This document shows positions 4,362 to 61,830 of a stretch of DNA of 64,000 bases, piece by piece. How positions within the stretch are numbered: position 1 is the stretch's first letter; each line of letters begins with the position of its first letter. Source of the stretch: Octopus vulgaris (taxonomy: Eukaryota); contig OX597828.1 in assembly GCA_951406725.2 (NCBI GenBank), positions 47,616,001-47,680,000 of the forward strand, in the 5' to 3' direction. The position numbers and the translations under genes are program-made. Under the pieces are notes generated by a model. The model saw only the letters and a list, made by a program, of their open reading frames with translations, was not told where the DNA came from and ran no database searches.

Positions 4362-4605
4362 GGGCATATTACGTAGTGGTTACGAGCGCAGGCTACTAAC
4401 CCCAAGATTCCGAGTTCGATCCCAGGCAGTGACCTGAATGATAATAATAATAATAATAACAACATCGAAAAATACCTTAGGAATGAGAACCCAGGTTCGA
4501 AATTTCCCCAAGACAACTGATGAAGTATGGAGGGTATATCAGCCGAAACGTTGTGTTAACAACAAACAAGATGAGGACAAATATCTGTCATTTGTAAATA
4601 ATGTA
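4362..4605 (+). mobile_element. tRNA-derived SINE-like element with a 3' hammerhead-like motif
   Basis: Degenerate A box (TACGTAGTGG), anticodon-arm-like GGCTACTAACC, B box GAGTTCGATCC, internal (AAT)n, then CTGATGA...GAAACGTT at 4517-4552. Confidence 0.65.
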
Positions 4606-4798
4606 TATCTTTTTTTTTTTATTTTGCTTCGTTCAAAGCATAACTGAGTACTTATAAATATACTACTACTACCACCACCACCACCACCACCACCACTAGA
4701 AGAAGAAGAAGAAGAAGAAGAAGAAGAAGAAGAAGAAGAAGAAGACAATAATGGTTCCTGAAAACAACAATAACATTAACAACAGATGAAGGTATTAC

Positions 4799-5019
4799 CT
4801 GCACGCGAACTTCCGGCAAATTAAGCTTCATTGCCAAATCTTCTCGGCTGTATACATCCGGGTAGTGCGATTTTTCGAACGCTCTCTCCAATTCGTGAAG
4901 CTGAAAGGTGGTGAAGGTGGTGCGGCTACGGCGGTGTTTCTTTTTGGCCAAGCTGTAAGAGTCGCTGTCAAACGTCGGGCCAGCTGGAGCGTCTGGGAAC
5001 CTTCCAGGGTCTTCGTTCT
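4799..5019 (-). CDS. Rx: Internal exon of a retinal homeobox (Rx/Rax)-type paired-like gene, homeodomain residues 1-46
   Basis: Encodes [73 protein letters not shown]. Acceptor ttacttgtacag (phase 1). Donor CAG|gtaata lies at the Q46/V47 intron position typical of PRD-class homeoboxes. The VWFQNRR exon was not found in the window. Confidence 0.92.
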
Positions 5020-5127
5020 CTGTACAAGTAACAACAGTAACAATAACAACGAAAGTTCACGACAGTATTAATGACAAAACATTGGCCAACTATAATAATT
5101 AAGAATCTTTTCTATTATTCTTTTAAT

Positions 5128-5335
5128 TCTCTTACTTGTTTCAGTCATTTGACTGCAGCCATGCTGGAGCACCACCTTTAGTCGAACAAATCGACCCCAG
5201 GACATATTCTTTGTAAGCTTAGTACTTACTCTATCGGTTTCTTTTTGCCGAACCGCTAACTGACGGGGACGTAAACACACCAGCATCGGTTGTCAAGCGA
5301 TGATGGTGGGGGACAAACATAGACACAAATAACAA
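5128..5335 (-). mobile_element. tRNA-SINE family A, 3' half
   Basis: Matches the tail of fuller copies at 40730-41172 and 57107-57460 (GGTGCTCCAGCATGG..CAGTCAAATGACTGAAACAAG). Confidence 0.85.
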
Positions 5336-5439
5336 ATATATATATATATATATATTTGTTATTTGGTGGTGGTGGTGATGATGATGATGATGATAATGAT
5401 GATGATGACGACGATTCATTCTAATTTTTGTCACAAGAT

Positions 5440-5760
5440 CAGAAGTTTGAAAGGAAAGCCTGGTCGATTACATCGACCCCAATATTTAATTGGTAGTCTG
5501 TTTTTATCAACTTCGAAAGGATGAAAGACTAGGTCGATCCCGGCATTTGTGTAACGCTCTAACGACTCTAAGTGTTAGGCTAACCATTCGGAAATAGGAA
5601 TTAATTGATGCCATCAACCCCAGGACTTGAACTGTGCTTTATTTTATTGACCACGGAGGAATAAAAAGCTAAGTAAGCCTCGCCGGAGTTTGAACTCAGA
5701 ACGTAAAGTGATATGAGTAAGCAATGCAAGGCGTTTAGTCCGACGCGACAGTTTATACAA
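5440..5760 (-). mobile_element. Degenerate SINE fragments with a Nin-domain-like core
   Basis: Repeated CTTTCATCCTTTCG..GATAAA..TACC..GGGGTCGAT motif on minus; related pieces at ~27215-27392, ~39955-40180 and 56075-56370. The Nin label is from recall. Confidence 0.5.
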
Positions 5761-6689
5761 CCCTGGGGGAATTGATAAAGAACTGAAAATCGGAACCACC
5801 GGAGACATTGGATGTATCAAGCCAGTAATGACCCGCGGTGTGACCCATGTCAGATTATTTGTCTAAAACTTTTGTGTATATGCATATCTTTCACTTGTTT
5901 CAGTCATTAGACTGCGGTCAAGCTGGGGCACCCCCTTGAAGAATTTTAAACTTTGTGTGGAGAGGGGGGTATGCGCGTCAAGCAGAATGCGGAATAGAAA
6001 GACAGATTAAATGAATAAGTGAGACGTAGAGAGAGAAAGGGAACGTATATGTATGCTTTAAATAGAGACATCCAGATTTGAACCCGTGTCCCCTTCGTTC
6101 ACTGGGCTTCCCAGTCTACTATGCACCAGACCACAACAGCAAACAGGAAACACATCAACGATACAAAACAGCGACCTTATTAACATCACGTATGAGACAC
6201 CATCAACACCACCCCTACAAACTATGCAACTGCCACCGCCATCACCGCCACCACCATCGCCATCGCCGCCACCACCATCGCCATCGCCGCCACCACCATC
6301 GCCATCACCACCATCGTCATTACCGCAACCACTGTGACCATTAAAACTACCATCCCCCTCCATCAACACCACTGTTTCCACAAACATCACCACCGTCTCT
6401 GTGATCACCACACCACGTCTTCCAACACCACCACCATCACCGCCACCACCACCGCCACCACAACCACTATCACTATCACTATCACCACAGCCACTAACAC
6501 AACCATTGTTATCACCGCCGACACACCCCTTCTTCCTCGAAATTACCACCACCACCACCACCACCACCACTACCACAGTCACTACAGTTTGATAGAGAAA
6601 TAACAAGAAGCGCGAGGGGAATAGAGGTTGATATTAAACTGCCTCCACCCTACCTTCGCCAGCACCCTTGGTTCTTACTAACAACAAAA

Positions 6690-58873: not shown

Positions 58874-60110
58874 TATGAAAGGTGCTATAGATCTATGTTA
58901 GTTAAAAAAAAAACATAAAAGCACAAACAAACCGAAAGCAGACACAGAAGGTTGCCAAATCCTCATCAGTTATTGGCTGGAGGGTCAAACACAGATGTTT
59001 GTGCATTTATGTCCTTTTAACTAATTATTTATTGAAACGCAAAGTACGGATATTTTTAACAAATATGTTAATTACATTTTGAGGGTGGGGGGGTAGGTTT
59101 AACTAATTAGAAAAAATATGCAGGGACATAATTAAATGCCAGTATTCAACGTCATATTCATTCTCTCTCTCTCTCTCGCTCTCTCTTTCTCTCTCTCTCT
59201 CTCTCTCTCTCACTCGCTTTTTTTTCCTTTTTCTCACTCTAGCTCATTCTCCATCATCTGATGGCAATGAAGCTGAAGGAGAGGAGGAGGAGGAGGGGGA
59301 TGAGGAGGAGGAAGAGGAAGGGGAAGGGGAGGGGGAAGAGGAGGTGGAAGAGGGGGAAGAGGAAGAGGTGGGGAGGAGGATGAGAAAGAGGAGGAAGAGG
59401 AGGTGGAAGAGGGGGAAGAGGAAGAGGAGGGGAGGAGGATGAGAAAGAGGAGGAAGAGGAGGTGGAAGAGGAGGAAGAGGAGGGGATGATGAGAAAGAGG
59501 AGGAAGAGGAGGAAGAGGAGGGGAGGATGAGAAAGAGGAGGAAGAGGAGGGGAGGATGAGAAAGAGGAGGAAGAGGAAGAGGAGGGGGAAGAGGATGAGA
59601 AAGAGGTGGAAGAGGAAGAAGATGAGAAAGAGGAGGGGGAAGGGAACGACGACGAGAGGAAAGAAGAAAAGGATGATGATGACGATGATGATGATCATCA
59701 TTATGATGGTGATGGTGGTGGTGGTGGTGGTGGTGCTGCTGCTGCTGCTGATCGACGCCATATCTGTGTCCCAATGAACACAGCCAATGGCTTAATAAAT
59801 AATCTCACATTATTTTCCTCATTGACTCTTGACTGTGAGTTTGAAGCTGCCGCAGTACTTCACACACACACACACACACACACACATAGATTTTATCCAC
59901 TTCATCATCTTCACCCTCCTACTCCTCCTCCTCCTCCTCCTCCTTTTCCTCATCATTGTCCCACTGGCAATCTTTGTAAGATGCCGAGTCGTAATTTCCA
60001 CTCAACCACGGCAAGTACCTATCTATACCATACTCCCCCCCTTTCTTACCCTCCTCTGCCATCGACTCTCGCACAAACACTCTCTCTTTCTTTCTCCCTC
60101 TAATAATAAC

Positions 60111-60430
60111 TGGCACTCCGTCGGTTACGACGACGTGGGTTCCAGTTGATCCGATCAACGGAACACCCTGTACATGAAGTAAACGTGCAAGTGGCCGAGC
60201 ACTCCACAGACACGTGTACCCTAAACGTAGTTCTCAGAAAGATTCAGCGTATTACAGGATGTGACAAGGCTGGCTCCTTTGCATTACAGGTACTATTCAT
60301 TTTTGCCAGGTGAGTGGATAGGAGCAACGTGAAATTGTGTCTTGCTCAAGAACACAACGCGCCGTCGGGAATTGAACTCACGATCTTACGATCGGAGCCG
60401 AATACCCTAACCACTAAGCCAAGTGTCTTC
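60111..60430 (-). mobile_element. tRNA-SINE: head type B plus tail shared with 22931-23120
   Basis: Head TGGCTTAGTGGTTAG..GAGTTCAATTCC..TTGAGCAAGACAC; tail as in 22931-23120. Confidence 0.8.
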
Positions 60431-60536
60431 ACTTGCTCCTCTTCTCTCTCTCTCTCTCTCTCTCTCTCTCTCTCTCTCTCTCTCTCTCTCTCTCTCTCTC
60501 TCTCTCTCACTCTCTCTCTCTAAGATATATATATAT

Positions 60537-60960
60537 AGCAGCTATGCTAGAACATCACTTTGAAGGGTTTTAGTCAAAAAAATCGATGCCCAGGACTTAT
60601 TCTTTTAAAGCCGAGCACTTATCCTATCGGTCTTTTCCTGGACCGCTAAGTTACGGGGACGTAAACACACCAACACCGGTTGTCAAACGATGATGGGGGA
60701 CAAACACAAAGACATACATACATACATACATACATACAAAAATAAATACATACATACATACATACATACATACATACATACATACATACATACATACATA
60801 CATACATACATATATATACATATATACGACGGGCTTTTTTCAGTTTCCGTCTAGCAAATTTATTCACAAGGCTTTGGTCGGCCCGAGGTTATAGCAGAAG
60901 ACATTTGCCCAAGGTGCTACGCAGTGGGACTGAACCCTGAGCCATATGGTTGAGAAGCAC
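60537..60960 (-). mobile_element. tRNA-SINE family A
   Basis: Same head, microsatellite, tail layout as other copies. Confidence 0.85.
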
Positions 60961-61016
60961 CTTGATGTGTGTGCGCGCGTGTGTGTGTTTATATCATATA
61001 TATATATATATATATA

Positions 61017-61195
61017 GGGAGAGTTTACGAAAAAAACAAAAGACGAAGACAGGTGGTGTACAAAACAAACAGATGTATTAGTATAACGCTCAGGAATAGA
61101 AAAAGTCTTTTACGTTTCGAGCCTACGCTCTTCTACAGAAAGGTACACAGAAAAAACAAGGAGAGAAAAAATGTGTGTAGGGGCTAACGATCTAT
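61017..61195 (-). mobile_element. Short repeat with CUGUNGA hammerhead-like motif (61107-61143)
   Basis: CTTT-CTGTAGA-A-GAGC-GTAG-GCTC-GAAAC-GTA-AAAG; (TA)n on both sides. Confidence 0.7.
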
Positions 61196-61589
61196 CATAT
61201 ATATATATATATATATATATATATATATTGCAAACTGTTTGAAGATGTGTTACCAGTTGGAAGCTCCGCATACCGGATGCTACCAAGTTTATGGGGATCA
61301 TCAGGAGACAATACGCGCCGTTTCGTGACCACCTGTCGACGGCATCATTGAACACCGGCTTCCCTTGCTGAAATGAGAACCCGCTGCTACATCAACTGGT
61401 TATCAGGTTTCGCTCAATATTCTTGTAACCATTTCTCATCGTCTCTTTTTAACCAAATCGTATGTGTGTGTGTGTTTGTGTGTAGAGAGAGACAGATATC
61501 TTCTAGCCATTGCTATATATATGTATATATGTGTGTGTGTGTATGTATATATATATATATATATATATATATATATATATATATATATA

Positions 61590-61830
61590 TAGTGAATTGA
61601 AGAAATGGAGTTGAACGAAGATTGAACAGAAATCGTTTTATTGCATTCTACACGTGTTTCGAAAGGCACAATTTACCAAATTCCGATTGAATAATGAGAC
61701 CATATTGTGTCTTTCTCTTCAGGAAGAAATAGGAAATCCGTTGGAATAAACAAAAACAGAACAGAGGCGGAGCAAAACAAAAACTTTTGATTAATCTGCA
61801 ACAAGATTATTCATCTTTCTATTTCACAAA
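61590..61830 (-). mobile_element. Diverged relative of the 10542-11015 repeat with a hammerhead motif
   Basis: TTC-CTGAAGA-GAAAGACACAAT..ATTGTGCCTTTC-GAAAC-ACGT-GTA-GAA (about 61646-61725). Confidence 0.7.

Follow-up and report, generated by a model that had tools for sequence, protein, structure and literature searches.

The DNA considered here, hereafter the window, is a stretch of 64,000 nucleotides of the Octopus vulgaris genome (GenBank assembly GCA_951406725.2, contig OX597828.1, positions 47,616,001 to 47,680,000 of the forward strand), in which several short repeats are laid out like type I hammerhead ribozymes: stem I, a seven-nucleotide core, stem II, GAAA, and a self-complementary stub in the place of stem III. 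These repeats had been predicted to be a dense set of minimal hammerheads that show all four Watson–Crick combinations at core positions 3 and 8 and mark Penelope-like elements (PLEs). Every core cited in that original prediction lies at its cited place: CUGAUGA at 4517 (+), CUGAAGA at 9853 (+), 10882 (+) and 61722 (-), CUGACGA at 16780 (+), GUGAACA at 44156 (+) and 44126 (-), AUGAAUA at 18700 (-) and 24713 (-), and UUGAAAA at 47852 (+). The motifs and the insertions that carry them are collected in Table 1.

Table 1. Hammerhead-like motifs and their host insertions, numbered from the first letter of the window.
Feature	Positions	Strand	Description
C3-G8 motif	4512..4557	+	Minimal, with slight decay; part of the tail of a SINE-like element (4358-4608)
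C3-G8 motif	9849..9883	+	Decayed copy of an abundant short family; palindrome lost (AUGU for ACGU)
C3-G8 motif	10877..10960	+	55-nt stem II, imperfect stub ACAUGUGU; inverted partner at 10506-10675; young family
C3-G8 motif	14681..14752	+	Stub ACUGCAGU; missing from the original prediction; one copy in the DNA collected
C3-G8 motif	16776..16858	+	Long stem II, stub ACGGCCGU; four related copies in the DNA collected
A3-U8 PLE 3′ repeat	18554..18748	-	5′-truncated, with tail, between (TA)n tracts; Neptune/Nematis-type linker
A3-U8 motif	18671..18705	-	Minimal, AUGAAUA at 18700; 2-bp stem II, stub ACCGGU, C17
A3-U8 motif	24683..24719	-	Second copy, AUGAAUA at 24713, stem II mismatch; element 24624-24768
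G3-C8 PLE 3′ repeat	43945..44281	.	Whole back-to-back insertion flanked by (TA)n tracts; ends approximate
G3-C8 motif	44083..44133	-	Minimal type I, GUGAACA at 44126; inverted partner in the 5′-truncated PLE insertion; arm bears a tail of ~60 nt
G3-C8 motif	44149..44198	+	Minimal type I, GUGAACA at 44156; stub AAUAUU, U17
362-bp repeat	47743..48113	+	One monomer of a tandem non-LTR retrozyme-like repeat, then (TA)n
U3-A8 motif	47832..47901	+	Type I of canonical architecture, UUGAAAA at 47852; predicted cut after C47881
C3-G8 motif	61646..61725	-	Core 61722; 82% relative of the 10882 family; intact stub ACACGUGU; stem I of just 3 bp

Motif census and the 3-8 pair

The genome (2.8 Gb) is rich in microsatellites, which dominated the output of a window-wide repeat search, and this route to the motifs was dropped. 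The motifs were counted with a descriptor that, in its final form, left positions 3 and 8 unconstrained, tolerated a base inserted after A9 and a stem II of up to 70 nt, required a palindromic stub, and scored the stems. The descriptor was relaxed stepwise after motifs had been seen; its stricter versions 1, 2 and 3 returned one window site, two (versus 0.04 in shuffled DNA) and three (versus 0.05). The final version passes six sites, all paired at 3-8 (C-G at 14686 and 16780, G-C at 44126 and 44156, U-A at 47852, A-U at 18700), so that all four Watson–Crick combinations do occur in the window, where 100 local dinucleotide shuffles give a mean of 0.03 sites and a maximum of 1. Five of the ten sites cited earlier (4517, 9853, 10882, 24713 and 61722) are decayed or irregular and fail the descriptor, and the full layout thus holds for the other five; the palindromic stub is intact at the passing sites and at 61722, but broken at 9853 and 10882.

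An independent sample, an arbitrary 800 kb made up of 80 stretches of 10 kb placed at round coordinates across 21 chromosomes, contains 16 matches to the same descriptor, 15 of them paired (7 C-G, 7 U-A and 1 G-C) and one mismatched, against shuffle means of 0.15 paired and 0.75 mismatched. A similar rate of motifs in shuffled DNA had been named beforehand as counting against the prediction, and it is seen neither in the sample nor in the window. Density, in contrast, is only modestly raised: six matches in 64 kb exceed the rate of 16 in 800 kb, but two of the six form one inverted insertion. When the core itself was replaced, nine of ten decoy cores gave 0–4 matches versus 22 for the true core, from which it follows that most families keep the catalytic letters.

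For genome-wide counts, family patterns left positions 3 and 8 free, reversed patterns served as the control, and pair states were read from the first 100 matches listed. The G3-C8 family has 4,794 matches (0 in the control), with G3 in all of those 100 and C8 in 98, G8 in 1 and U8 in 1; the A3-U8 family has 614 (again 0 in the control), with 94 A3-U8 and 6 single changes. Neither set of 100 contains a single C3-G8 copy, as literal CUGANGA would require, and reversion of the families to CUGANGA, the other outcome set in advance as adverse, is thus not what is seen. Among the copies collected, the pair is kept in 119/127 (G-C), 64/65 (A-U) and 20/20 (U-A). A mismatched 3-8 state appears in two of 23 clusters, with 1–2 copies each, and no multi-copy family among the 23 is fixed for a mismatch. 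The 3-8 pairs are fixed family by family and are not copy decay. A family-level permutation (p ~5e-8) was set aside, as its 20 families were hand-picked and related and mismatched singletons had been left out.

Beyond the pair, the G-C, A-U and retrozyme-like families retain U4 G5 A6, A9, G12 A13 A14, A15.1-U16.1 and H17, and stems I and II close the junction as in a type I hammerhead, with stem II reduced to only 2 bp in the A-U family. Since the published U3-A8 subtype also departs from CUGANGA, the Watson–Crick pair, present here as G-C, A-U, U-A and C-G according to family, rather than its letters was taken to define a hammerhead. The expectation that CUGANGA-only searches would largely miss these motifs because of the 3-8 pair was overstated. 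Across seven families tallied in 864 kb, 17 of 72 copies are non-C-G, which makes the variants a minority by copy number. Moreover, even with E values allowed to reach 10, Rfam matches no hammerhead model to the U-A, G-C and A-U regions or to a minimal C-G control, so the miss of the three variants is not caused by the 3-8 pair. In a whole-window Rfam scan, microsatellite matches to microRNA (miRNA) models dominated, with no hammerhead among the 150 of 500 rows seen.

Elements that carry the motifs

Most copies of the G3-C8 family are about 200 nt long and begin about 25 nt upstream of the core; they frequently come with an inverted partner. They stop at either of two points about 60 nt apart, followed by (TA)n. 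A longer copy reaches an open reading frame (ORF) encoding a GIY-YIG domain across a 1-kb microsatellite-rich 3′ region, and GUGAACA lies downstream of the GIY-YIG ORF end in 25 of 30 loci, 0.5–1.7 kb past the stop. One locus holds a 1025-aa open ORF with YVDD and GIY-YIG (E 1.8e-5, above the Pfam cut-off); its reverse transcriptase (RT) is not matched by Pfam, although YVDD is visible and its closest named homologs bear the label of reverse transcriptase domain proteins. The family linker reads CQSNCAVC. The genome also contains a relative of the G-C element whose last 320 aa are 53% identical and which groups with it at 93/94 support. That relative has a 1312-aa ORF and, at the matching place, a C3-G8 motif with a similar stem II. 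A Neptune-like ORF at locus L287 was considered as the G3-C8 parent and rejected: that copy sits inside another element, and L032 led to the true parent. The G3-C8 element is there inserted within the GIY-YIG region of the unrelated Neptune-like element (L287 / L297 ~720-1700). A search for a second G3-C8 family with a CCGGU stub and a stem II of at most ~30 nt gave 6 genome matches versus 11 in the reversed control, and hence no second G-C family of that shape.

Longer A3-U8 copies extend into an ORF with GIY-YIG (E 3.2e-6), a Cys linker CGRPNCGTC and RVT_1 (E 1.1e-6, just under the cut-off). The motif lies about 300 nt past the ORF end and passes a strict descriptor in 13 of 30 loci, the other 17 being only partly inspected. 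Related families at 70–73% protein identity retain A3-U8 while N7, loop II and one stem I pair (A-U to G-C) differ, and families at 64–67% identity carry U3-A8. Forks among the Neptune-like families are open in the tree, so the order of the 3-8 changes is not fixed by it. In both the A-U and G-C families, a single ORF encodes RT together with GIY-YIG at the C terminus, as in endonuclease-bearing (EN+) PLEs, and the marks of such elements are all present: 5′ truncation, an inverted 5′ copy, a tail at one end and microsatellite targets. Microsatellite bias, inversions and tails are described as PLE marks (Craig et al. 2021, PMC8557442). Both families have a linker of the CX2-5CxxC type found in Neptune/Nematis; the RT tree contains no named reference PLE, and these clade names are therefore tentative. 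For one element ORF the best homolog is a protein recorded as Octopus vulgaris, which matches this genome at 100%.

Three U3-A8 families also lie downstream of GIY-YIG ORFs (one of them behind a GIY-YIG fragment), and the link of minimal hammerheads to PLEs thus held for G-C, A-U and U-A motifs. The U3-A8 hammerhead at 47852 is of a different kind. The prediction of minimal architecture applies to the G-C and A-U motifs but not to this site, where stem I is extended and bears a UAC bulge and loop II reads CAAUA, features that may resemble the tertiary contact of the Schistosoma hammerhead. Its 362-bp host is full length and 100% identical in 41 of the 42 matches listed, many spaced 362 bp apart, in arrays of up to 9 units among those matches, with inversions and (TA)n ends as in PLE insertions. 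The monomer (41% GC) is non-coding, contains one hammerhead per unit and folds far better than its shuffles (z -6.2). Sequencing runs under seven organism labels contain it, and in the four that were compared no other letter is listed at position 3 or 8; a 362-base return joint in the assembled contigs is equally compatible with tandem DNA, and no run is recorded as RNA. An autonomous partner was not found among the loci collected.

By its sequence features the 362-bp repeat fits a retrozyme outside the long terminal repeat (LTR) class. Like animal non-LTR retrozymes (PMC7229834; Li et al. bioRxiv 10.64898/2026.07.22.740005), it is a short non-coding tandem monomer with one canonical type I hammerhead per unit and strong self-pairing. 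As far as the available text of PMC7229834 describes them, it differs from those elements in its U3-A8 core and in arrays with inversions and PLE-like (TA)n ends.

The C3-G8 sites are more varied. The copy at 4517, which like that at 24713 has mismatches in stem I or II, ends a short interspersed element (SINE)-like unit composed of a tRNA-like head (by eye), an (AAT)n spacer and a minimal hammerhead tail, present in 12 copies in 864 kb (L221-L245). ARAGORN finds no tRNA in this unit, which is possibly mobilised by the Penelope machinery. In the 10882 family, ACAUGUGU replaces ACACGUGU in all 15 close copies seen. Longer copies show, by visible motifs, a GIY-YIG-like ORF upstream, for which Pfam and homolog searches give no support and the Atlas a lead only (0.95; a cluster with 11% GIY-YIG members). 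The motifs at 14686 and 16780 are rarer ones with a long stem II. Many more C3-G8 families have a long stem II and palindromic stubs of 6–8 nt, one palindrome per family (L094, L095, L103, L142, L166, L234, L248, L252, L341); such family-own palindromes could keep dimer pairing family-specific.

The motifs were envisaged as parts of a single microsatellite-associated retroelement system. The association with microsatellites stands; the single system does not, for the motifs are independent insertions into microsatellites of several PLE lineages, a retrozyme and a SINE-like element, and the window copies are dead-on-arrival fragments. That AT-rich repeats instead match the motif by chance, or that the copies form the terminal inverted repeats of miniature inverted-repeat transposable elements (MITEs) derived from DNA transposons, is very improbable. 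Back-to-back inverted copies do resemble hairpins, Rfam yields only sub-threshold miRNA-type matches, and for single sites, 14686 among them, the DNA collected contains no further copy; however, the shuffled and reversed controls speak against this explanation, as do variable 5′ truncation, unequal arm ends and the upstream RT/GIY-YIG ORFs. It is refuted for the G-C, A-U and U-A families, and may hold for 14686 alone.

Catalysis, fold and founder effects

Together, the sequence evidence suggests, with a probability of about 0.7, that type I hammerheads occupy the 3′ pseudo-LTRs of several PLE lineages as well as the 362-bp repeat, that each family has its own fixed Watson–Crick 3-8 pair, and that these RNAs likely cut themselves slowly, as dimers. 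Two motif copies would meet in a tandem transcript or on the protein of the element, and their palindromic stubs would pair as stem III. The RNA would then be cut after N17, which would process the precursor and, in the retrozyme, also make circles, and reverse transcription into (TA)n would leave mainly truncated 3′ repeats. Selection would preserve the 3-8 pair because the core fold matters, yet weakly; mismatched intermediates could thus survive until compensation restored the pair, which would allow double-transversion swaps (C-G/G-C and U-A/A-U). Minimal PLE hammerheads are reported to cleave weakly as dimers (PMC4209133), and one PLE hammerhead cut only with protein added, C3G/G8C partly rescuing its cleavage (PMC11167929). 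In the available text of a full double-mutant scan, C3G/G8C is the sole rescuing swap (PMC9901934). When two copies were cofolded, the double hammerhead was the minimum-energy fold for an A3-U8 family copy, for the retrozyme and for a second U3-A8 family; stem III dimer pairing was not predicted for the ACGU stub of C-G motifs.

Several observations weigh against slow cutting under selection. With respect to folding, no dimer pairing is predicted for the all-A-U stub of the G3-C8 family (probability ≤0.02 in 3/3 copies), and both window copies of the A3-U8 motif, with its 2-bp stem II, misfold in the model. With respect to published biochemistry, in one type III hammerhead all other double mutants in the region, including A-U and U-A, had low activity (PMC9901934); moreover, hammerhead mutants were without effect on insertion in vitro, and no RNA-seq reads of the anole element ended at the cut site (PMC11167929). 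Start or end pile-ups are likewise not listed for the assembled octopus contigs, a data type unable to reveal cut sites. The 3′ repeats of the G-C element and its C-G relative align weakly (score 37, against a mean of 1.9 and a maximum of 45.5 over 500 shuffles), so that the case for orthologous motifs depends on where they lie and on the similarity of stem II.

The remaining adverse observations concern cores that are themselves damaged. Among the seven hammerhead-like families counted, the one with most copies (23 in 864 kb) is fixed for A6U (CUGUNGA) in 23/23, and has the full minimal-hammerhead layout, intact stems, an ACGU stub, all four states of N7, and C3-G8 in 21/23. The A6U decoy core gave 11 matches, ten of them this one family. 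The literature search turned up no natural A6U hammerhead in the results listed. Three of the 23 copies lie in the window, at 45204 (+), 54886 (+) and 61138 (-). The related family to which 9853 belongs has U4C in 7 of its 14 copies (CCGACGA; L102, L116, L134, L164, L166, L170), which are possibly a subfamily. Among young PLEs, the C3-G8 family with the 1312-aa ORF combines, in 7 of 8 loci, A9C with a stub that is not palindromic (L373-L379; e.g. L374 ~1215-1270), and the youngest Neptune-like family, with open ORFs of 753–782 aa, has the stub GAAAACCGGUUG, one base shorter than in an older relative, in 9/9 loci. In U3-A8 families with the stub GAAAACCGGUUG (L201-L205, L215-L218, L208), either A15.1 is preceded by an additional A or an unpaired N17 is missing; the stub has its regular form in an older relative (L284). 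The argument from covariation to selection for catalysis is therefore partly supported: the pairs are family-fixed, but so is A6U, and two young PLE families have core defects.

These damaged cores lend some weight to a reading in which the hammerhead fold persists because it serves the retrotransposon RNA as a signal for protein binding or dimerisation, cleavage being dispensable and the 3-8 pair conserved for shape. The A6U family retains C3-G8, stems and palindrome across its four N7 states; the families with A9C or an irregular stub have long open ORFs and near-identical copies, and catalytic mutants insert normally in vitro (PMC11167929). We nevertheless regard this as unlikely, given that the decoy-core control indicates that most families keep the catalytic letters, and a pure binding signal would not obviously require G5, G12, A13 and A14; furthermore, short non-autonomous elements can amplify without a cleavage function.

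More improbable still is that the variant pairs are founder accidents, that is, degenerate motifs without function that became fixed in a small number of master elements and were copied passively. Copies within a family do not count as independent, the transversion swaps observed number just two, and damaged cores do become fixed in other families. However, two specific transversions are needed per swap, A3-U8 persists across families that are 27–30% protein-diverged while neighbouring unpaired positions change, and multi-copy fixation of a mismatch is absent from the 23 clusters.

Relation to known hammerheads, and other features of the window

The octopus motifs resemble the minimal type I hammerheads of metazoan PLEs (Cervera and de la Pena 2014, PMC4209133) in their pseudo-LTR location, palindromic stub for stem III, unpaired base that may follow A9 and G10.1-C11.1, and also in occurring mostly as single truncated copies, in inverted pairs 100–700 bp apart, and with a U3-A8 subtype, for which that study counts about 1,300 matches in Schistosoma mansoni. 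They differ from the published set in a stem II that ranges from 2 bp to ~55 nt and in stubs of up to 8 nt. The rows examined of that paper's metazoan alignment contain just C3-G8, U3-A8 and one U3/G8, with no cephalopod among them, whereas G3-C8 and A3-U8 are fixed in high-copy octopus families. A compensated 3-8 pair and a 2-bp stem II also occur among natural U3-A8 hammerheads (Perreault et al. 2011, PMC3088659); the available text of that study names only the transition swap U3-A8, with no mention of the transversion swaps G3-C8 and A3-U8. G3-C8 supports partial cleavage in engineered C3G/G8C hammerheads, including a PLE hammerhead (Frangieh et al. 2024, PMC11167929; Roberts et al. 2023, PMC9901934), but these are laboratory double mutants, whereas in octopus G3-C8 is the natural state of a family that has at least 4,794 matches and includes copies whose long ORFs are open.

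U3-A8 is thus already in print, and G3-C8 is in print as an engineered rescue. Full-text literature searches found no natural G3-C8 or A3-U8 family, although unsearched surveys and supplementary alignments may list them; key hammerhead surveys lie outside the search, and absence from print is therefore not established. The main text of a 2026 octopus repeat annotation (PMC13282606) does not contain the words hammerhead or ribozyme. What is new is a well-supported set of variants, with putative cleavage, within a known kind of hammerhead, and not a new class of ribozyme or element. A more far-reaching claim can be made only tentatively, and we give it less than even odds: that the genome contains natural, active G3-C8 and A3-U8 families not yet in print, so that all four Watson–Crick pairs work in nature, and that the A6U family is either a further working core variant or a sign that PLEs retain the fold for a non-catalytic role.

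Hammerheads are known features of PLEs. Related lineages that differ at 3-8 (C-G, U-A, G-C and A-U), together with the A6U and A9C lineages, provide a natural allelic series in one genome, which would allow a direct test of whether catalysis or only the fold is selected. The search rule for genomic hammerheads also broadens, from CUGANGA to any paired N3-N8.

Pfam was run on 32 of the 177 window ORFs of at least 100 aa; among those 32 it found no PLE gene, and it yielded a homeodomain exon at 4655-5056 (-; PF00046, E 5.7e-15), presumably paired-like, and a weak zf-RVT match. The elements of the window may lie in or near this homeodomain gene. The zf-RVT match (E 7e-4) falls in a 404-aa open frame at 27598-28812 (+), probably a fragment of a long interspersed element (LINE), and a 332-aa frame at 34360-35358 (-) has no Pfam match. 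A tandem repeat at 1156-1961 has a 149-bp unit in 5.4 copies with 92% matches.

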